Positions 3,943 to 49,751 of a stretch of DNA of 64,000 nucleotides are shown in pieces (within the stretch, counting starts at the first letter, position 1; each line of letters begins with the position of its first letter). The stretch comes from a virus, in IMG/VR virus record IMGVR_UViG_3300044648_000427, one strand, 5' to 3'. The notes under the pieces are model-generated. The model saw only the letters and a program-made list of their open reading frames with translations. It did no database searches and was not told where the DNA came from. The translations under genes were made by a program, and so were the position numbers.

Positions 3943-3980
3943 GCGTAGCTGCGGTAATAGCGGTTGTAGCGGACTGGCGG
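3943..3980 (+). repeat. phased GCGG array, locus 1
   Basis: GCGT 3943; GCGG 3951, 3960, 3969, 3977. Confidence 0.75.
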
Positions 3981-9007: not shown

Positions 9008-9210
9008 GCGGAATTGCGGTAGCAACGGCTATAGCGGAACAACGGCACAAGGGTTTAAATACTCTATAATGTATTATATATATCTATTGTTTAACATGTT
9101 ATTAAATAAATCATGTGCGTTATTTATCGCTGTTTGCTCGCCGCAATTCGTCCGCAACTGCCGTTATTCCGCAATTTCCGCTTTTCGCTATTCGTCAATC
9201 CGCCCGCCGC
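9008..9210. repeat. inverted phased (G/A)CGG arrays flanking an AT-rich core, locus 2
   Basis: Plus strand: 9008, 9016, 9025, 9034, 9042; minus strand (CCGY): 9141, 9152, 9161, 9169, 9178, 9200; AT-rich core about 9051-9112. Confidence 0.75.
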
Positions 9211-10362: not shown

Positions 10363-10398
10363 GATCTGCGGCTTGCGTGGCTGCGGCCACAGCGGATC
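10363..10398 (+). repeat. GCGG array / nested hairpin, locus 3
   Basis: GCGG/GCGT at 10368, 10375, 10383, 10392; GATCTGC/GCGGATC encloses GTGGC-TGCG-GCCAC. Confidence 0.55.
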
Positions 10399-10565
10399 GA
10401 TTTTGATTTTGGATCGACGGGCGAAAAAAAAAGTTGAGCCTCGTTTAAAAAATTTTACCCCCGCAGGTGTGAGGAAGCCCATTTGTTTGATCGGGGATCA
10501 AAAACCGCTATATCAACACTATATACATTAGAAAACCTTATTAATTATAATTTTTTCTAATATAA

Positions 10566-18952: not shown

Positions 18953-19051
18953 AATAACGTTTTTCGGCCCGTAATATCGGCCCTCGAAATTAAATTTTTC
19001 GTCATTCATGCGTTAGTTCTTCTTATATACGATTAACGTAATTTCGCCTTT

Positions 19052-19576
19052 ATGGGTGAAGCGGGAAGACCGACGGCAATTAGTCGTGAAGAAACACTTT
19101 ATAAAATACGTTCGATGAGAATTGAGGGCTTTAATAAACAGCAAATTATTAAGCAATTAGGTATGAGTCCGAATACTTATGATGATTATTTAAATATTAT
19201 TTATGTACAAGACGCTGAGACATTAAGTAAAAAGCGGGAACAGGCGTTAGCTACTGATGTAGAACTATACAAGAATAGGTTGGAAAAGGCTCTTCGTAAC
19301 CTTAATTACCTTTTCGGAGATGCGACAGCTACGGCTAAGGAGAAAGTCGAAATAATAAAAGCTAGCGTTGAGATTGCTGGTAAACTTATGCGTGTGGACT
19401 CTGAGGGAACTGCACTTTTAGAACTTAAGCCCGAATTGCGTCAGATGATTGAGGACGCTAATAGCTTAGTGAGGAACAAAATTGAGATAAACACTTACAA
19501 CATTGGGGAGTTACCTGAAAAAGGAGCTGGCAAGACAATTAAGCTTCAGAAAAAAGATGAAGATCTTTTTGGTTAG
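19052..19576 (+). CDS. terS: probable terminase small subunit
   Basis: GRPT followed by N-terminal HTH, helical body, upstream of terL. Confidence 0.55.
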   Translation: MGEAGRPTAISREETLYKIRSMRIEGFNKQQIIKQLGMSPNTYDDYLNIIYVQDAETLSKKREQALATDVELYKNRLEKALRNLNYLFGDATATAKEKVEIIKASVEIAGKLMRVDSEGTALLELKPELRQMIEDANSLVRNKIEINTYNIGELPEKGAGKTIKLQKKDEDLFG

Positions 19577-19665
19577 ACCAAAAAATTTGGGTAGGCGAAA
19601 AATCGTTTTCCCCTTATAATCCCCTTTCAAAGAAGTCTACCACTGTGGGGGATGTGTTCGTTTTA

Positions 19666-19731
19666 GCGGCGAAGCCGCAAGCGGAAATTGCGGTAGCTGC
19701 GGTAGCAGCGGAAATTACCGTTGAGTAGCGG
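19666..19731 (+). repeat. phased GCGG array, locus 4
   Basis: GCGG at 19666, 19681, 19690, 19699, 19708, 19728. Confidence 0.75.
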
Positions 19732-19732
19732 A

Positions 19733-19800
19733 TGATCAACCATTGAACCTACGGTTCATCCGCTGAGCAAAGTGCGTAGCACGATGCTCAACGTTGATCA
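19733..19800. other. three-way junction / cruciform-forming element
   Basis: TGATCAAC/GTTGATCA encloses TGAACC-TAC-GGTTCA and TGAGCA..GTGC-GTA-GCAC..TGCTCA. Confidence 0.7.
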
Positions 19801-19920
19801 GTACAATAAAGCGAAAGGTTTAAATAGCGGCATAGCGGTATAATATTATACCGGACGTACCGGTCGATAGTGGAGACTATAATATTATTATTATATATAT
19901 AGTCTACCACTAGCGGTGCC

Positions 19921-19946
19921 TTTTTTTTTCTTTTTTCAGTTTTTTT
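19921..19946 (+). terminator. oligo-T terminator-like tract
   Basis: T-runs right after hairpin 19868-19912. Confidence 0.4.
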
Positions 19947-20040
19947 ATCAATTTTTCCCAAACCCCTCTAAAAACACCCAATATCACTAGCGATATCACT
20001 AGCGATACGAAAGTTTAAATACTATGAGCGTTTTTTGGAC

Positions 20041-20283
20041 GAAAGGTTTAAATAGGTAGGTGTTGTAGTAACCTGTTGGATCAAATCTATTTTTTCCACT
20101 TTTTTAGCATTTTTTAACAAAATTTCCGATTCGGAAATATTTTAGCAAAAATGGGGGAAAGGTTTAAATAGGTGGGTGTTGTAGTAACTATTTGCTTCGA
20201 ATCAAAATTTGAAGGGTTTTAGTTTTTTTTAATTTTTTTTTAATTTTCGGGGAAAGGTTTAAATAGGTGGATGTTGTAGTAAC
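20041..20283 (+). repeat. three 32-bp direct repeats GAAAGGTTTAAATAGGTRGRTGTTGTAGTAAC
   Basis: Copies at 20041, 20157, 20252; each carries a BRE/TATA-like AAAGGTTTAAATA. Confidence 0.85.
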
Positions 20284-20477
20284 TAGTTGGCAAAAGTGTT
20301 TTTTCTTTAAGTTATTATTTTTAGTAACAAATAAAATACGTTTTTAAGGGGTCAAATTCGATATGTTTAAATACTACCATGAGAATATAACTAGTTGGAA
20401 CGAATAAAGGGTTATAAAATTGTATTTGACCCGTACGAACCGTAATCCATATATTTTACGATTATTTAATCAACTGT

Positions 20478-20684
20478 ATGAACAAGGAACGGTACTTCAC
20501 CATTCACATCTACGGCCCTGAATCAGATTATATTTACGAACAGGTAACAGGAGTAGACTTTAAAAAATTGGAAGAGGCTCAAAAATGGATCGATAAATAT
20601 CTCCCAAAACACTTAGGTTACAAGATAGTCAAAAGTGAAACCGTAGTCAAGAAGTCTTCTGCTCCACCACACTATTTAACATAG
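20478..20684 (+). CDS. hypothetical protein
   Basis: ORF track. Confidence 0.55.
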   Translation: MNKERYFTIHIYGPESDYIYEQVTGVDFKKLEEAQKWIDKYLPKHLGYKIVKSETVVKKSSAPPHYLT

Positions 20685-20716
20685 TTCTCTAAACCCTTGC
20701 TAAGCAACTAATTTTC

Positions 20717-22369
20717 GTGCCCGAAGAATTCATTATCCCTGAATTAGGTAGAACCCTTAAAGAGAAAAAACAAGAAAAAACAAGAAATGATGCAAGTATT
20801 CTTAAGGGAAAGCCGTTTTGGATTTGGGATAAGAAGGAGCACAAGAAAAAATATAAAGAATTAAATGGTGAATGTTGTTTTAATCATATTGCAGGATTAC
20901 CTGTAAAAAATGGACGAGCAAGACCAATTTATCCATTTCAGAAGCAGATTTATGATCTTACCATGTCGAAGGTAGAAGAGGCAAGAATGTCTGATGAAGA
21001 GCTAGAGAAACTTCATGGAAAGGATTATATAAGACGTTTAGGGGTGTGGATTGAAAAAGCCACTGGTTTGGGGGTAAGTGAATTTTATTTACGTCTTATG
21101 GGATGGTTATGTGTTTATGATGATTATTATAAAGGTTCAGATTTTTGTATTGTAACAGGGCCAAATATTAAGTTAGCTTCAGACCTTATTGATAGATTTA
21201 AGGATGTTTTCTATGAAAATTTGAAATTTAGATTTGATGATAGTAAGTTTGAGGCTACTGTAAATGATGTGCATATTGAAGCTTTTCCTTCCGATAACTT
21301 ATCTGCTCTTAGAGGTCGTCCTGATGTAAAATTTATTCTTCTAGATGAAGCAGATTTCTTTTCTATAGGATCACAAAAACAAGTACGTGCTATAGCAGAA
21401 CGTTACATTGGAAAAAGTAATTCTATCGTAGTTATGGTAAGTACGCCAAATGCTGATACTCCTGATGGACTTTATACAGAAATGAAAGCAGAATTTGATG
21501 AAGCAAGGAAGCGTGGAACTTTACAATCTATTCTTTATGATCCCTTAGAACTTCCCTACACTGTAGGATTAGGAACAATGTTTAGTGAAGCTGAAATGGC
21601 TCAGGCTAAACTTTCACCGTCATTTGAGACTGAGTATAACCTCCAAAGGGGTTTCGGACTTGGTAATTTGTTTATGCCTGAAACAATCAAAAAAATGATC
21701 GATTTGGGTGAAAAACTTGGTGAAGAAAAAATCAATGTAAATAATACTTACGTTGCAGCTCCTAACACATTTGAACTTGTAATGGATTTAAATTCAATGT
21801 ATGCAAAATCCGATATAAAATATGATAAACCATTATTTGTTCCTAAAATTGGCTCTACACGAGTTATGGGTATAGACGGTGCGTTCGGTTCAAGTAAATT
21901 CGCTATTTGCGTGGTGGAATTAGTCCAATTTGAGGGAGAACCGGTGGTAAAAGTACTATATAGTGACGAATTCGAGCGTATTGACTACGATAATGCGTTG
22001 ACTAGATGCGAAAATCTCATAAAATTCTATGGTATTAAACGTGTTTATATTGATTCTGCTAACCCTGAAGTTGTAGGTGGAATCAGAAAGATCTACGGCG
22101 AACAACATGATTGGACATTAGATCGTAGACTACCTTCTAGGTGGTCTGGATTTCCAGTTTCGTTTAATAAGGAAGGCCGCCCCTTATTAGCTAAACTTCA
22201 ACGTATGGGTGAAATGGGTAATTTAGCGGTAAGTCCATATTTTAAGAATTTACTAGTTTATCTAAGAATTGCTCAACATCAATCTTATAACTTGGAGAAA
22301 GTTGGGAAGACGCAACTCGACGAACTTGATGCGTTAAGGTTGGCTTTAAAACACTTTACATTTAGTTAA
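20717..22369 (+). CDS. terL: terminase large subunit
   Basis: KATGLGVSEF Walker A variant, ILLDEADF Walker B, VSTPN, RNase H-like MGID and C-terminal DELDA. Confidence 0.85.
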   Translation: MPEEFIIPELGRTLKEKKQEKTRNDASILKGKPFWIWDKKEHKKKYKELNGECCFNHIAGLPVKNGRARPIYPFQKQIYDLTMSKVEEARMSDEELEKLHGKDYIRRLGVWIEKATGLGVSEFYLRLMGWLCVYDDYYKGSDFCIVTGPNIKLASDLIDRFKDVFYENLKFRFDDSKFEATVNDVHIEAFPSDNLSALRGRPDVKFILLDEADFFSIGSQKQVRAIAERYIGKSNSIVVMVSTPNADTPDGLYTEMKAEFDEARKRGTLQSILYDPLELPYTVGLGTMFSEAEMAQAKLSPSFETEYNLQRGFGLGNLFMPETIKKMIDLGEKLGEEKINVNNTYVAAPNTFELVMDLNSMYAKSDIKYDKPLFVPKIGSTRVMGIDGAFGSSKFAICVVELVQFEGEPVVKVLYSDEFERIDYDNALTRCENLIKFYGIKRVYIDSANPEVVGGIRKIYGEQHDWTLDRRLPSRWSGFPVSFNKEGRPLLAKLQRMGEMGNLAVSPYFKNLLVYLRIAQHQSYNLEKVGKTQLDELDALRLALKHFTFS

Positions 22370-25660: not shown

Positions 25661-27193
25661 CTACTCCAAGCTATTAATTTTCCTTTCCGTTCTAATCTCT
25701 GATTTAAGTCTTTCTAATTGGTATTCATTCATATCGGCAAATTTGATAAATTGTGAAAGAAATTTACTTCTATTTTTTACTTCTTTGAACATTTTTTGAC
25801 AAATAATTCTATACTCTGGATTACCCTGTGGTATGGTTCTTAATTCAATAATATGAGCAAGTTCACGGAAATTACAGAATATTTGATAACGATAATTGAA
25901 GGCAAAATTCAAGCAATATGGTGCTAATTGTGGTAATCTATTATAAATATGCTTATATATTTTGATGGAATTTTCCATCAGATCACAAAATTCAACATCT
26001 AAACCCAGTTTTTTAATTTCTGGAGGTATGTAAAATCCAATATGAGGATTAAATTCAGTCCTATGGAAGGTCAATAATCGATGTCTGTGTAAATCTCTAT
26101 AAACTGCATAACTTGAAACTATTTCGAACCTCCACATAGAGTTTTCAAATACTCTAGGTAAATTATGTCGTCTGTTCTGTCTGAGATTGGACATTATTTG
26201 AGATAAGAGTTTACGTCTTTGGTTAATACTAAGACTTAATAACCATGTTCGGATGGAATCAAATGAAAGACCCTTATCATTTACTTCATAAAAGATGTTG
26301 GTAAGAATATTAATTTCAGAAATAAGTTGGACATCACTTTCTAAACATTTTACATAATTTTCGTATATATCAGGCTGATTAATTTCTTTAATTTCTCCGA
26401 AATCTAAATGTCTTGTTAAATGAGATTTTCTTCTAGAATTATAATTTATCAGATAATTTTGATATGATTGACCATGAGGGGAATCTATACGTGAAAGGAG
26501 TGGCCCGATTGTAGAACTTAATTCCTTTTGTATTTTACTACCCAATCTTTTTACTTCAGGAATGTTCGAAGCTTTCATCTTCAAAATTAAATGCTCAAAA
26601 TAACGTCCGGTTCCGTTTATTGCAACATTAGTCAATATACTTGATGGTAAAATTCCTCTGACAATATCAAGAGTTTTAGCTTTAATGGTTGAATTATAAA
26701 CAGCTTTAGTATTTTTTACTCCTTCATAGTTTAAACTTTCTTCTGGAAACTGTTCACGTAAGTAGGAATCAACTTTTTCTGACATTTCATTATAAGTTTT
26801 TATAGAATTATTACAATGTTCAATATAAATATCAGTTAAATCCCCTAATTGTTCAGGAACGTAAAACTTATCAAAAGTTACGTATCTTGAAGATCGTTCG
26901 AGATATGAAGCACCTGTTCTAGAATCTTCTATGAATTGAGCTGCAATATTAGATATATCTTCAATTGCTATTTGAGTTGAACATAATTCCGCAATTGAAT
27001 CATCGCCAAAGTTTGCGAATACTTTTTTGTAAAACTCTTCTCCTCTATTTGGATTATTTTCGAATTCATCATGATAAATTTGTCTCATACTTTTAGTTGA
27101 ACGGGAGTATCTAGACATCAAAGCTCCACGGTCAACTTCATTTGGTATTTTTATTACAAAAACATTAGAATTTTCATTACTGAATGGTTCCAT
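25661..27193 (-). CDS. thyX: FAD-dependent thymidylate synthase (long two-domain type)
   Basis: SRYSR, FGDDSIAEL, YLERSSRY, RDLHRHR, NFRELAHIIELR. Confidence 0.9.
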   Translation of the reverse strand: MEPFSNENSNVFVIKIPNEVDRGALMSRYSRSTKSMRQIYHDEFENNPNRGEEFYKKVFANFGDDSIAELCSTQIAIEDISNIAAQFIEDSRTGASYLERSSRYVTFDKFYVPEQLGDLTDIYIEHCNNSIKTYNEMSEKVDSYLREQFPEESLNYEGVKNTKAVYNSTIKAKTLDIVRGILPSSILTNVAINGTGRYFEHLILKMKASNIPEVKRLGSKIQKELSSTIGPLLSRIDSPHGQSYQNYLINYNSRRKSHLTRHLDFGEIKEINQPDIYENYVKCLESDVQLISEINILTNIFYEVNDKGLSFDSIRTWLLSLSINQRRKLLSQIMSNLRQNRRHNLPRVFENSMWRFEIVSSYAVYRDLHRHRLLTFHRTEFNPHIGFYIPPEIKKLGLDVEFCDLMENSIKIYKHIYNRLPQLAPYCLNFAFNYRYQIFCNFRELAHIIELRTIPQGNPEYRIICQKMFKEVKNRSKFLSQFIKFADMNEYQLERLKSEIRTERKINSLE

Positions 27194-27980
27194 CTATATT
27201 ATTAATATGTTTCGTTGATATAAACTTTTGGTTTTCATGGGGGCATTTACCATAAATTCCTTTTGCCATATTACAATTACTACATAGTATTTGGTAGCCG
27301 TCAGGAAAATTATTTTGTTGTAACCAATTAAAAAAATGTTTTCTTTCAGACTTTAATTTCTTTCTATGTTCTCTTCCATGTCCATCAAGATGATCAATTT
27401 CTAAAAATTCTAATTCATTTTCACCACAACATTTACAAAATGGAATTGAACTTTTTGAATAGTATTTTGTTATTTTTATTTTATCCCTCTTATAATACTC
27501 CCTTTTTTGTATTTGTTTCTTTGTGAGTATTTCTGAAGTGACTTGTATCATTCTATGATGTATACAACATTGGTTTTTCCCTTTGGAACGGTTGCAGGAA
27601 TTACAAAGAATTTGATAACCTTCAGGAAACCCATTTTTAATTAAATAGAGGTAGATATACCCTTTAAAAGTTTTTCTATGTTCTGCTCCATTACCATTTA
27701 TATGATCTATACATAGGAATTCTTTTTGAGTTATTTTACAACAATTGCATCGTGGATATAAAGTATCACTATAATAAAGTAATACTAAATCTCTTATATT
27801 CTTTCTATATTCCCTCTTATGCTTATTTATTTCTTCCTTGTGGTTATTATGATAACCTTTTTTTTGTAATAAAACCATTTCTTTATTATTTTTATAATAT
27901 TCTTTATTATGATTATAAAAATATTCTTTATGATTATTATAATATTTCTTATTATAATTGGGATCTTTTGTAACCAACAA
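27177..27980 (-). CDS. HNH endonuclease with two tandem HNH domains
   Basis: IDHINGNGAEHR...GYQILCNSCN and IDHLDGHGREHR...GYQILCSNCN. Confidence 0.8.
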   Translation of the reverse strand: MLVTKDPNYNKKYYNNHKEYFYNHNKEYYKNNKEMVLLQKKGYHNNHKEEINKHKREYRKNIRDLVLLYYSDTLYPRCNCCKITQKEFLCIDHINGNGAEHRKTFKGYIYLYLIKNGFPEGYQILCNSCNRSKGKNQCCIHHRMIQVTSEILTKKQIQKREYYKRDKIKITKYYSKSSIPFCKCCGENELEFLEIDHLDGHGREHRKKLKSERKHFFNWLQQNNFPDGYQILCSNCNMAKGIYGKCPHENQKFISTKHINNIDGTIQ

Positions 27981-29941: not shown

Positions 29942-32900
29942 GTGAGGCTTTTTTTAGTATCTGCAACATATAATAACAAGCGTTTTTGTGTTGATTTAAT
30001 CTTTTATAATCCTGAAACTGAAAAACTTGTAACTATTTCTGATTTTACTGGTCATAAACCATATTGTTTAACAAGAGAAGAATTTCAACCAACATTAGAT
30101 GAGATTACAGCAACAGAACACAAGTATACCATTTCATCCGTAGAACGTTATGACTCAATTGCCGATATGGACGTTAATATGCTTAAAATTCAAGCTCCAG
30201 ATCCTTTATCTATAGGTGGAAATTCCGAAAGTATTAGAAATAGGATTGTCACTTGGGAAAGTGATATACGATATTATGATAGATACTTGTACGATAATGA
30301 ATTAATTTGCGGGCTTTGGTATGACGTTGATGATGGTAATATTTCTCCATATAAAGATGATTCAATTGATTTCTCAGAAGTAGAATCAAGATTAGAGTTT
30401 GGGAAGAATAAACAATATGATGAATTCGTAAAAAATTGGGTACAAATACTTAATCAATCTATCCCTGATATTAAACGTTTGTCTGTTGATATTGAAGTTG
30501 AATATGATGGAGATAAAATTCCTACAGTAAATATTCCAAACAAAAGGATTACAGCGATAGGATTTTGTTCCAATGATGGCTTTAAGAGAGTAAATGTATT
30601 AAATCCTAAAGGTGATTTACCTAATACCGATACTACATTCTATTATACAAGTGAATATAAGATGCTTGTTGAATCAATGGATTTACTTTCTACTTATCCA
30701 TTTATAATTACTTTTAACGGTGATGCTTTTGACCTTCCTTATTTATACGCTCGATGTTCTAAACTTAATATTCATTATACGAAAATTCCGCTAACCCTCA
30801 AGACTACCAGAATTGCTGATGGAGCTTATGTAGATCCAGTATACATAAAGAATGCAATTCATATTGATCTTTACAGGTTTTTCAAGAATCCATCCATACA
30901 GAATTATGCTTTCAGTCATAAATACAGTGAATTTGGATTGGATGCAATAGCTAAAGGGCTAATAAATGAGGCTAAAATAACCCATCAAGGTTCATTAAAC
31001 ACTTTAACTCCTGATAAATTAGCAGAATATTGCTTGAATGACGCTGAAATTACAATGAAATTGACTACTTTTAATGATAATTTATTCATGAAACTTGTTA
31101 CAATGATTTGTAGAATCTCAAAAATGCCTTATGATGACTGTACTAGATATGGGGCTAATCAATGGGGCAAAGGTATGATATTCTCCGAGATGGTGAAACG
31201 AAACATTCTTATTCCCCGTCTAGACGAATTGCTAATTAAGGGAACAACTGCTTCAAAAGATGCTACAATTAAAGATAAAAAGTATGCTGGAGCATTTGTA
31301 TTTACTCCAACAAAAGGAGTTTATTTTGATGTTAAGAATGTGGATTTTGCTTCACTTTATCCATCAATAATTAAGACAAATAATATTAGTTTCGAGACAA
31401 TTAATTGTCCTCATCAAAATTGTATGAAGAATTCTATTCCTGAAACACGTTCTTGGAGGTGTCAGAAAAGAGATGGAATAATTTCTCAAGTAATAGGTTC
31501 ATTAAGAGATTTGAGAATCAATTATTATAAATTTATGTCAAAGAAAGGGGGATTAACTGAAGATCAACGTCAATTTTATGATATAATTAGTCAAACACTT
31601 AAAGTTATTATGAATGCTTCCTATGGAATACTTGGATTTGAGTCATTCCCACTCTATTGTTTACCTGTTGCTGAATCTGTTACAGCTTATGGTCGTGATG
31701 TGATTCATAAAACAATTGATAAATCTAGAAGTATAGGATTAAGTGTAGTATATGGTGATAGTGTACTACCAGATACACCTATCATAATAAAAGATAAGAA
31801 TGATAATATTCAAATAATTCCAATAGAGTCATTAGTACCTAATTCTTATGGAAGTTGTCGTTACAAATGGATGAATAAGATAAAGATTTTAACTGATAAT
31901 GGATTTCAGAATATTTTATATACATATAAACATATTGTAAAGAAAAAATGTTATAAGATATTAACTCGAAAGAGTTATATTGAATGTACTGAAGATCATA
32001 GTCTAATTATTGATGGGAAAGAGGTTAAACCATCTTCCTTAAGTGTTGGGGATACAATAGAATTTATTGATTATTCTAATTCAAATAACAAGGAATTTAA
32101 TAATGAATTAGCATGGTTATTTGGATTTTTTATAGCAGAAGGTACTACTGGTAGATATAGTTGTCCTTCGGGGTTGAAAACAACATGGAGGATAGTAAAT
32201 CAAGATATAAATATACTTAAACGTTGTCAGTATATCTTACGTAAAGAACTTGGAATAGATACAGTTATTAGAGATCATATAAAAAGTAGTGGTGTTTATG
32301 CTTTAGATCCTGTTGGGTCAGCAATTTTTGTACATAATTTTTTTAAAAAATATTGTTATTCGAATAATGAAAAAATAGTTCCATCAATAATACTGAATTC
32401 TAATACTAACACAAAAATGGCATTCCTAGAAGGAATTTTATCAGGAGATGGGTGGGATGATGGAATTTATAGGGGGTTGGATCAAATTCATAAATCGGTT
32501 TTTTCTGGTGTTATAAATATTCTATACGAACTTGGATATGATTATACAATAAATATTAGATCTGATAAACCCAATGTATTAAGAGTAAGAATAATAAAAG
32601 ATAAAAATGATAAAAGAATAAAAAATCCTAATCAAATACTTAAATTAGAATCATTTGAATATGAAGGATATGTTTATGATGTTTCTACGGAAAATAGTCA
32701 TTTCTGTGGAGGAGTAGGAAATGTTATTCTTCATAATACAGATTCTATGTATGTTCATAAAGCCGATCCAGATAAACTTAATCAAGTCATGATTTGGACA
32801 AAAGAAACCTTTGGGATTGATTTAGAACTTGACAAGTCTTATCGATATTTAGTTCTTACTGAATTAAAGAAAAACTATCTTGGAATTACGGATAAGGGTA

Positions 32901-33490
32901 AAGCCGACATAAAGGGTCTTACAGGAAAGAAATCTCATACACCTGTATTTATTAGGGAGCTGTTTTTTCAGGTTTTAGACATTCTGTGTAATATTCAAAC
33001 AGAAAAAGATGTACCTAAAGCACGAGAAACTATGTCTGAACTTATACGGAATCGTGTAAATGATCTAAAAGAAAATGCTATTCCATTCAATAAACTCGCA
33101 TATAATGTTGTAGTTAATAAAAATCCTGATTCATATGGAAAGAAGATTTCAAGTAACAAAGTTAAGAACTTGTTTGGTGAAGAAGAAACTATAGATGAAT
33201 ACAAGTCTTTACCGCAACACATAAAAGCTGCAAAAATGCTTCCAAATATTGAGGCAGGTAGCGTGATTTCCATAATCAAAACAAGGGATGAAGATGGTGT
33301 CAAACCCAAACAATTAATAAAGAGTATAGACGAAGTTGATAAAGATAAATATATTGATCTTATGGCTAATACCTTTAGCCAAATATTAGATAGCTTTAAA
33401 CTTGATTTCAAAACAATTATAAATAACAGTAAACAATTAACTATGGATGATATAGCAAATCTTGTTGTATTAAAAGAGGAAGAGAAATGA
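29942..33490 (+). CDS. polB: family B DNA polymerase (archaeal B1 type) with intein
   Basis: LVSATY/GHKPYC N-terminus, exonuclease DIEVE and TFNGDAFDLPYL, DFASLYPS, KVIMNASYG, YGD|TDS. Confidence 0.95.
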   Translation: MRLFLVSATYNNKRFCVDLIFYNPETEKLVTISDFTGHKPYCLTREEFQPTLDEITATEHKYTISSVERYDSIADMDVNMLKIQAPDPLSIGGNSESIRNRIVTWESDIRYYDRYLYDNELICGLWYDVDDGNISPYKDDSIDFSEVESRLEFGKNKQYDEFVKNWVQILNQSIPDIKRLSVDIEVEYDGDKIPTVNIPNKRITAIGFCSNDGFKRVNVLNPKGDLPNTDTTFYYTSEYKMLVESMDLLSTYPFIITFNGDAFDLPYLYARCSKLNIHYTKIPLTLKTTRIADGAYVDPVYIKNAIHIDLYRFFKNPSIQNYAFSHKYSEFGLDAIAKGLINEAKITHQGSLNTLTPDKLAEYCLNDAEITMKLTTFNDNLFMKLVTMICRISKMPYDDCTRYGANQWGKGMIFSEMVKRNILIPRLDELLIKGTTASKDATIKDKKYAGAFVFTPTKGVYFDVKNVDFASLYPSIIKTNNISFETINCPHQNCMKNSIPETRSWRCQKRDGIISQVIGSLRDLRINYYKFMSKKGGLTEDQRQFYDIISQTLKVIMNASYGILGFESFPLYCLPVAESVTAYGRDVIHKTIDKSRSIGLSVVYGDSVLPDTPIIIKDKNDNIQIIPIESLVPNSYGSCRYKWMNKIKILTDNGFQNILYTYKHIVKKKCYKILTRKSYIECTEDHSLIIDGKEVKPSSLSVGDTIEFIDYSNSNNKEFNNELAWLFGFFIAEGTTGRYSCPSGLKTTWRIVNQDINILKRCQYILRKELGIDTVIRDHIKSSGVYALDPVGSAIFVHNFFKKYCYSNNEKIVPSIILNSNTNTKMAFLEGILSGDGWDDGIYRGLDQIHKSVFSGVINILYELGYDYTINIRSDKPNVLRVRIIKDKNDKRIKNPNQILKLESFEYEGYVYDVSTENSHFCGGVGNVILHNTDSMYVHKADPDKLNQVMIWTKETFGIDLELDKSYRYLVLTELKKNYLGITDKGKADIKGLTGKKSHTPVFIRELFFQVLDILCNIQTEKDVPKARETMSELIRNRVNDLKENAIPFNKLAYNVVVNKNPDSYGKKISSNKVKNLFGEEETIDEYKSLPQHIKAAKMLPNIEAGSVISIIKTRDEDGVKPKQLIKSIDEVDKDKYIDLMANTFSQILDSFKLDFKTIINNSKQLTMDDIANLVVLKEEEK
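31760..32737 (+). mobile_element. intein with LAGLIDADG endonuclease in the PolB YGDTDS motif (326 aa)
   Basis: Starts SVLPDTPI, ends HN before T; blocks LFGFFIAEG and FLEGILSGDG. Confidence 0.9.
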
Positions 33491-49512: not shown

Positions 49513-49751
49513 TAAGAAGACCGATATTTGATTGGGTAGTAGTAATTATTGTACTCTCAATTTTTTTTAGTTTAGCTTATTTAGTTTATGATAAAGATGG
49601 AACTTCATTAAAAACTGATTGTATTCATACAAATTCAACAGAATTTGTAGCAATTTTTATGAATTGCCCTTCAGTTATTGATAATTATGTAAAAAAAGGT
49701 TGGAATATAAGCACTTTTGGGGATAATTTAGTCTATCTTTGGAAGCAATAA
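49503..49751 (+). CDS. membrane-anchored protein
   Basis: TM helix. Confidence 0.5.
   Translation: MEIIRRPIFDWVVVIIVLSIFFSLAYLVYDKDGTSLKTDCIHTNSTEFVAIFMNCPSVIDNYVKKGWNISTFGDNLVYLWKQ

Follow-up and report, generated by a model that had tools for sequence, protein, structure and literature searches.

A conserved three-way junction with C-GNA-G tips upstream of terL in an archaeal tailed virus, a candidate folded-DNA signal

The window analyzed here, a stretch of 64,000 nucleotides of viral DNA with an AT-rich base composition (about 30% G+C over the whole 64 kb), carries a 68-bp element at positions 19733–19800 that is real, selected and unusual. It has the potential to fold into a three-way junction, it lies in an island of purifying selection, and its hairpins end in C-GNA-G triloops that are enriched there. 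We tentatively favor, at somewhat under an even chance, the view that these selected nested inverted repeats, once the DNA is single-stranded or has been extruded, serve as a signal recognized by its structure. A packaging (pac) or an origin signal are candidate roles for the junction. The features discussed are listed in Table 1.

Table 1. Features of the junction region and of the neighboring genes in the window
Feature	Positions	Strand	Remarks
ORF174	19052–19576	+	HTH and long helical hairpin protein
AGTCTACCACT copies, including near-complement	19634–19644, 19871–19881, 19901–19911		All three kept in L001
GCGG word array, phase about 9 bp	19666–19732	+	Directly 5' of the junction
All GCGG arrays	3943–3980, 9008–9045, 9141–9210, 10368–10395, 19666–19732		
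Hairpin GCGGC-GAA-GCCGC	19666–19678	+	With GCGAAGC (at 19669); identical in L001
Competing 9-bp stem, 5' arm AGCGGATGA	19727–19735		Also last GCGG repeat of the array
Competing 9-bp stem, 3' arm TCATCCGCT	19756–19764		Overlaps 3' arm of hairpin 1 and junction linker
Three-way junction	19733–19800		8-bp closing stem and two hairpins; 24 pairs, all Watson-Crick
Mini-hairpin word CCGTAGG	19748–19754	− (+ in L001 and L003)	Tip of hairpin 1
Mini-hairpin word GCGTAGC	19774–19780	+	Tip of hairpin 2
Archaeal BRE/TATA-like motif GAAAGGTTTAAATAG	19813–19827	+	Conserved
Small-RNA-like unit	19850–19929	+	Hairpin ACCGG-ACGTA-CCGGT, long AT-tipped hairpin, T9 run
Stack of strong BRE/TATA-like repeats	20041–20283	rightward	Without ORFs; T/A tracts between
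Large terminase subunit (terL)	20717–22369	+	phrog_2; homologues with PF17289
510-aa ORF	25661–27193	−	ThyX domain in C-terminal part
Endonuclease VII-like	27177–27980	−	Weak match, E = 5.9e-5
Family B DNA polymerase	29942–33490		Interrupted by intein with LAGLIDADG domain

Fold and conservation of the junction

The outer stem is formed by TGATCAAC (19733–40) and GTTGATCA (19793–800). Hairpin 1 (TGAACC-TAC-GGTTCA, 19744–58) consists of 6 bp and the loop TAC. In hairpin 2, TGAGCA (19764–69) pairs with TGCTCA (19785–90) over 6 bp; a 2x2 internal loop separates this lower part from four further pairs closed by the loop GTA (GTGC-GTA-GCAC, 19772–82). The stems and loops described in an earlier sequence-only reading of 19733–19800 were confirmed. 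The arms of the element all begin with TGA and end with TCA. No G-T or G-U pair occurs among the 24 pairs of the junction or among the nine pairs of an alternative stem.

Folded on their own, the exact 68 nt of the plus strand take up the three-way junction as their minimum-energy structure (−26.9 kcal/mol with RNA and −16.1 kcal/mol with DNA parameters); on the minus strand, the junction has −27.4 and −16.7 kcal/mol, respectively. The DNA folds were run with ViennaRNA, whose output apparently lacks a special term for GNA triloops. The 84-nt stretch around the junction gave z-scores of −3.9 (DNA) and −3.4 (RNA), with one of 200 shuffles equally good. Furthermore, the 12 lowest energies among 6,392 80-nt segments of the 64 kb were all found inside 19630–19930, which is the most structured block of the window. 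Based on the minimum-energy fold, the shuffle z-scores and the window-wide energy ranking, the junction is real and not a product of chance.

A perfect 9-bp stem competes with the junction and is mutually exclusive with both the outer stem and hairpin 1. As the last GCGG word of the upstream array serves as its 5' arm, its 3' arm repeats this word in inverted orientation. With flanks included, this stem was slightly better than the junction on the plus strand. In a 141-nt context, the outer-stem probability was 0.44 (RNA) and 0.13 (DNA) on the plus strand and 0.78 (RNA) and 0.42 (DNA) on the minus strand. Hairpin 2 formed with a probability of 0.84–1.0 in every fold context.

A metagenome scan yielded three close contigs. 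Two of them, L001 and L003, span the region, and the third, L002, begins inside terL. L001 and L003 are mutually identical here and represent one lineage; the comparison took in these two contigs. Relatives at intermediate distance are P0002–P0007 by terL (64–83% identity) and P0121–P0128 by ORF174 (48–91%). All 24 junction pairs are unchanged in L001 and L003. On the minus strand of L001, the junction reached a probability of 0.96 and dominated the ensemble. L001 differs only by two substitutions outside the pairs, A19742G and G19783A, and by the replacement of the hairpin 1 loop TAC by GTA. As GTA is the exact reverse complement of TAC, this replacement is explained by a single loop inversion. 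No covariation was observed in the junction between these contigs and the window. With one lineage and no covariation, conservation of the structure is not separable from conservation of the sequence, and paired and unpaired junction bases are conserved alike.

The four-fold sites of terL, which differ from L001 at 0.19 per site, served as the yardstick. Compared to these, the junction is more conserved (P = 0.0005 counted as events to 0.007 counted as bases), and so are the downstream hairpins at 19843–19916 (P about 3e-6), where 73 of 74 bases are identical in L001, more than in any other non-coding part of the gap. The remainder of the 1.1-kb gap is 23–65% identical to L001, and conservation resumes at 20438, the proximal promoter of ORF68-terL. 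Because they are conserved beyond both the four-fold sites and the gap, the junction and the downstream hairpin unit are islands of purifying selection.

The loop inversion refutes the opposite-strand design as a conserved feature. The sequence-only reading had described one C-GTA-G triloop per strand; in L001 and L003 both GTA loops are on the plus strand, so that this design belongs to the window genome and not to the element. The inversion also indicates that the orientation of the hairpin 1 loop is not strongly constrained. Loop inversion by template switching requires just an inverted repeat in the DNA. It has been documented in rRNA genes too and, since it affects RNA genes as well, is no proof of a function as DNA (PMC8794818).

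In distant terL relatives (33–55% in terL), neither a match to the element upstream of terL nor, in non-coding DNA, a cluster of mini-hairpin words like that seen here was found. One relative (L150) has a cluster of at least three such words about 4 kb beyond terL. Clusters of at least three words in L082 and L192 were rejected as a collagen-like coding repeat and a host stretch with 59% GC, respectively. INPHARED contained no DNA match to 19000–21000, IMG/VR no terL relative above 30–40%, and an exact-pattern scan of phage databases for both hairpins returned no match.

Mini-hairpin tips, neighboring signals and genes

Mini-hairpin DNA is characterized by a sheared G-A pair, a high melting temperature and nuclease resistance. 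In the island, GCGAAGC, GCGTAGC and CCGTAGG agree with the Hirao word consensus (GCGNAGC / CCGNAGG), stand at hairpin tips and are each extended by Watson-Crick pairs. Among perfect hairpins of at least 4 bp with a 3-nt loop, C-GNA-G (scored on either strand) was found in three of six in the island, compared to two of 412 in the remaining window (Fisher 1.6e-5). Of the 64 possible triloops, only GNA gives mini-hairpins, stems of the GC-GC and CC-GG type are both accepted, and the melting temperatures are 70 °C for GCGTAGC and 76 °C for GCGAAGC; the RNA counterparts are much less stable (PMC13037366). The words occur at G4-type origins, at RSF1010 ssiA and in an N4 early promoter, and what the sequence-only reading had called established, the stability of d(C-GNA-G) and its occurrence in N4 promoters, is correct according to the same source (PMC13037366).

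The GNA tips and the lack of G-T and G-U pairs favor selection at the DNA level, with a confidence that stays just short of even. The earlier claim of such selection stands as far as purifying selection is concerned, which conservation and fold support. Its DNA-level part is strengthened by the GNA tips, with an RNA still carrying considerable weight.

In L001, the sequence and the predicted hairpins of the GCGG array are different, and no fold is common to both genomes. GCGG arrays are present at four loci of the window (about 3.9, 9.0–9.2, 10.4 and 19.7 kb), each 5' of a TATA-like box, so that a role in transcription control fits as well as one in an origin or pac site. Mini-hairpin words in or near these arrays are GCGTAGC at 3943, GCGGTAGC at 9016, 19690 and 19699, and CCGCAGG at 10461; the window has 12 GCG(N)NAGC words, each of them on the plus strand. 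Iteron-type origins combine initiator-type repeats with an easily melted A/T-rich segment, and GCGG words in 9-bp phase beside T tracts are found here. The cumulative GC skew has its minimum at about 8–10 kb and rises steadily through 19.7 kb, without a switch at the junction. As the skew may follow gene orientation, the missing switch weakens the origin reading without excluding it.

The BRE/TATA-like motif downstream of the junction is one of five copies of the strongest such motif of the window, all within 19813–20266. Its distance from the junction is 12 nt here and 20 nt in L001, due to an 8-bp insertion. With the spacing seen at leaderless genes, transcription is predicted to start at about 19850, the first base of the hairpin ACCGG-ACGTA-CCGGT. 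The unit that begins there looks like a small-RNA gene (RNA fold z = −4.4). T9, T6 and T7 tracts follow at 19921–19955, and more T/A tracts are located between the promoter repeats. The promoter stack is also present in L001 (1790–2170) at other positions and spacings and is thus kept in kind, not in sequence.

Right after the small-RNA-like unit, where the window has T-runs, L001 contains the dyad TTTCCAGTGGAAA (1537–1549), which resembles what we take to be the dyad core of archaeal origin recognition boxes. A different dyad, TTTCCGA-T-TCGGAAA, is found at 20124–20138 of the window. Two direct copies of the 11-nt word AGTCTACCACT, 267 nt apart, flank the whole conserved island, and a near-complement of this word is the 5' arm of the long hairpin in the small-RNA-like unit; long-range alternative pairing or a common binding site are possible. 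Across the stop codon of ORF174, an 8-bp hairpin (TTTTTGGT-TAG-ACCAAAAA, 19565–19586) is kept in L001. It has a T5 run before the stop on the plus strand and a T6 run on the minus strand, and the latter would suit termination of a leftward transcript.

The assignment of terL in the sequence-only reading was borne out by the phrog_2 match and by PF17289 in homologues. A portal-like gene is also present in the window, and the terL relatives in genome bins all come from Nitrososphaeraceae/Nitrososphaerales assemblies. The same reading had named the upstream gene terS, and this was not confirmed: ORF174 has no Pfam and no PHROG match, and its eight homologues are all uncharacterized. Its predicted structure comprises an HTH followed by long helices. 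The small terminase of G20c/P74-26 appeared in weak Foldseek rows only (prob 0.33–0.47), amid TetR-type rows. VIA-align returned non-specific helical matches only, and the neighbors in the ESM Atlas carry HTH families. As judged from the predicted structure, ORF174 is a candidate for a small terminase or another DNA-binding protein. The ORF174-terL gap of 1.1 kb has the junction at its start, 157 nt from the end of ORF174, and further contains five promoter-like repeats and a 68-aa ORF. The placement between the two genes is thus correct as to the gap, and direct adjacency to terL is not given, since the repeats and the 68-aa ORF intervene.

In the whole window, GTAC was counted 89 times against 177 expected from base composition, a two-fold under-representation that may reflect restriction avoidance; GATC (172 against 177 expected) is not under-represented. 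A P1-pac-like logic based on TGATCA was discarded, as TGATCA occurs 36 times against 21 expected and GATC is not avoided, which gives no signal.

A possible folded-DNA signal and rival readings

Several observations count for a folded-DNA signal: the minimum-energy fold of the 68-mer within the most structured block of the 64 kb, the conservation island with changes at unpaired positions alone, and the enrichment of GNA tips that agree with a DNA-specific mini-hairpin consensus. The absence of G-T and G-U pairs, and hence of strand asymmetry, points the same way, as do the inversion, which keeps C-GTA-G on one strand or the other, and the iteron-like array, T-rich tracts and orphan promoters alongside. 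The single relative lineage without covariation, the junction probability of 0.13–0.32 on the plus strand with standard DNA parameters against the 9-bp stem, and the hairpin 1 GTA strand, which is not conserved, count against it. So does the fact that a GC-rich island in an archaeal genome of high AT content is usually an RNA gene. On balance we favor the folded DNA over a structured RNA. We know of no DNA hairpin signal of such kind from archaeal tailed viruses.

From these observations we infer an action as DNA, which might proceed as follows. A Y- or T-shaped junction with d(C-GNA-G) mini-hairpin tips would form from single-stranded or extruded DNA. Unaided extrusion of the 68-bp junction from relaxed duplex DNA is unlikely. 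The GCGG array is probably bound by a DNA-binding protein, for which the adjacent ORF174 HTH protein would be the obvious candidate, and this protein could open the duplex, as could negative supercoiling or unwinding behind the firing rightward promoters. The mini-hairpin tips would nucleate the junction fold. The folded DNA might be read by a replication enzyme, for priming or initiation as at G4 oric and RSF1010 ssiA, or by the terminase as a pac site; of the two, we consider a link to replication about twice as probable as one to packaging. The fully specified version, in which a junction opened by an iteron-binding HTH protein and by supercoiling from ORF-less promoters serves as a start signal for replication priming or for the terminase, is in our estimate rather unlikely. 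The window ORFs scanned yielded no primase. In the part of the genome scanned, the 64-kb window, model R1 found one copy of the junction. The L001 and L003 contigs run straight through the junction, which carries no information on a pac site in concatemeric DNA.

A possible, somewhat less probable reading is that the junction belongs to a structured non-coding RNA in which the two competing folds would work as an RNA switch or offer a platform for protein binding. RNA switches typically have helices that exclude one another. On the plus strand, an RNA or 3' UTR of about 280 nt would extend from ORF174 or from a weak TATA at 19612–19619 to the T9 run at 19921; the sequence at 19612, CTTATAAT, is similar to ORF174's own TATA, but this upstream candidate is degraded in L001 (CTAATAAC). 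On the minus strand, an RNA of about 200 nt would be driven by a quasi-symmetric TATA at 19819–19826, start near 19795–19798 and end at T5/T6 runs near 19600/19582, the hairpin across the ORF174 stop providing the T6 run. Promoter-like and T-run signals are thus available on both sides of the island; however, the conserved BRE is directed rightward, away from the junction, and the minus-strand start is predicted 2–5 nt inside the outer stem in this genome. The GC content of the island (0.45–0.57 compared to 0.30 in the genome), its rank as the most structured stretch of the window, RNA folds of the whole block with z = −4.5 to −7.8 and the minus-strand ensemble dominated by the junction (0.78; 0.96 in L001) all support an RNA, and loop inversions are known in RNA genes as well (PMC8794818). 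Yet neither an Rfam family at threshold nor a tRNA was found, and the 24 + 9 pairs are free of G-U. The tips are GNA triloops of the DNA type and not GNRA or UNCG tetraloops, their enrichment has no RNA rationale, and the GCGG array, which would be included in either RNA, has no fold conserved between the two genomes.

Two further readings rank below the DNA and RNA readings. It is improbable that the inverted repeats are duplex operator sites for dimeric regulators of the promoter at 19813–19827 and the late promoter stack, with folding as a by-product. The sites would be TGATCA (twice), TGAACC-N3-GGTTCA, TGAGCA-N14-TGCTCA and an inverted GCGG pair, and the TGA start and TCA end of all arms agree with this, as do the adjoining HTH protein gene, the equal conservation of paired and unpaired bases and the GCGG arrays 5' of TATA-like boxes at 4/4 loci. 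The conserved BRE/TATA 12–20 bp downstream of the element would also suit operators, but the 8-bp insertion in front of it in L001 shifts the helical phase. Moreover, two palindromes nested exactly in an 8-bp outer repeat 52 bp apart are a prediction of folding and not of operators, which also leave the enrichment of GNA tips unexplained. Less probable still is a functionless by-product of palindrome-making template switches in a fast-evolving gap, kept because the genomes are close. Such an event is visible in the element as the loop inversion (PMC8794818), and the single relative lineage without covariation also counts for this reading. Against it, the element is far more conserved than the four-fold sites and the remaining gap, its fold energy is extreme for the window, and its GNA tips are non-random.

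Known identities were also considered. In Rfam, with its hammerhead and other ribozymes built on a three-way junction, 6 kb gave no match at E ≤ 1. The top-scoring families of a 381-nt search, M23 (16.7 vs 41.2 bits) and Mahella-1 (12.1 vs 70.7 bits), are both upstream of the junction and below threshold. ARAGORN detected no tRNA. Inspected by eye, the strands at the junction (CAU / UCCGC / AC) do not match a hammerhead core. A coding function was rejected, as neither an ORF bounded by a start codon nor one with a conserved frame extends over the junction in both genomes. The junction is followed by GTACAATAAAGCG and not by a T-run, the next of which on the plus strand is at 19921, which speaks against a terminator. 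A MITE was dismissed because model R1 detected the element once in the window and in none of 190 related loci, and no target-site duplication was seen. Searches of 406 Nitrososphaerales genomes for a host-derived or att site gave low-complexity or chance DNA matches only, and model R1 was not found in the 151 Nitrososphaerales genomes searched. A 25-nt match in L203 lacks the hairpin.

Comparison with known systems

At RSF1010 oriV, hairpin signals are located on opposite strands beside an iteron array and an AT-rich segment. The two GTA tips on opposite strands in the window genome recall this arrangement, which is lost in L001 and L003. As proposed for the present element, the complementary-strand origins of G4, ST-1 and alpha3 and the RSF1010 signals ssiA and ssiB consist of folded ssDNA with tips of the GCGNAGC / CCGNAGG type (PMC13037366). 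These signals of ssDNA phages or plasmids are separate hairpins for which the primases that read them are known, whereas the present one is a closed three-way junction with an archaeal host and no linked primase or initiator. The N4 virion-RNAP promoters likewise present a DNA hairpin with a C-G-closed 3-nt GNA loop (N4 GCGGAGC; PMC13037366). Reading requires unwinding or extrusion, and the location at a transcription start region is shared. In contrast to N4, no virion RNA polymerase gene is found among the window ORFs scanned, which represent part of the genome. The junction has three helices instead of one and lies 50–117 nt upstream of the start (about 19850) predicted for an ordinary BRE/TATA promoter.

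The inverted terminal repeat of AAV is a T-shaped folded DNA that serves as replication origin and packaging signal and exists in flip and flop orientations. As in the junction, two small hairpins with loops of 3 nt are enclosed by an outer stem. The AAV repeat is terminal, about 145 nt long and read by Rep in an ssDNA genome; the junction is internal in the assembly, 68 nt long and has an 8-bp outer stem. Flip and flop invert the whole inner part, whereas here a single loop is inverted between strains. The primary origin of T7 has tandem promoters followed by an AT-rich segment, and the transcripts prime DNA synthesis. Orphan tandem promoters, A/T-rich spacers and the lack of an ORF beside the element resemble this layout; the promoters here are of the archaeal BRE/TATA type, and in L001 the stack is kept in kind but not in position. 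The pRNA of phi29 is an RNA of 120–174 nt found in phages without terS/terL-type terminases. Like the element described here, it is a compact and highly stable three-way junction encoded by a tailed virus, and it is tied to packaging, but the present element has no Rfam match and belongs to a virus with a classical terL.

To our knowledge, nothing is known about the start of replication or packaging in tailed viruses of soil ammonia-oxidizing archaea. A small, sharply conserved element with DNA-specific tips, amid an iteron-like array, an HTH gene and the terminase operon, is a concrete object for experiments. A function as folded DNA would add archaeal dsDNA viruses to the ssDNA phages, plasmids and N4 in which initiation signals of the hairpin type are known. 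As a start signal, it would be the first structure-specific DNA signal known to us from a tailed virus of archaea, and a counterpart, in a dsDNA virus, of the terminal repeat of AAV or the plasmid ssi signals. Should it act as RNA, it would be a new viral ncRNA with a two-state fold. Under either reading, the element shows where the packaging module is controlled.

A second, weaker three-way-junction-like fold (RNA z = −2.1) was observed on the plus strand at 49607–49682, in a non-coding gap between two leftward ORFs, where an outer stem encloses two hairpins whose loops have 4 nt.
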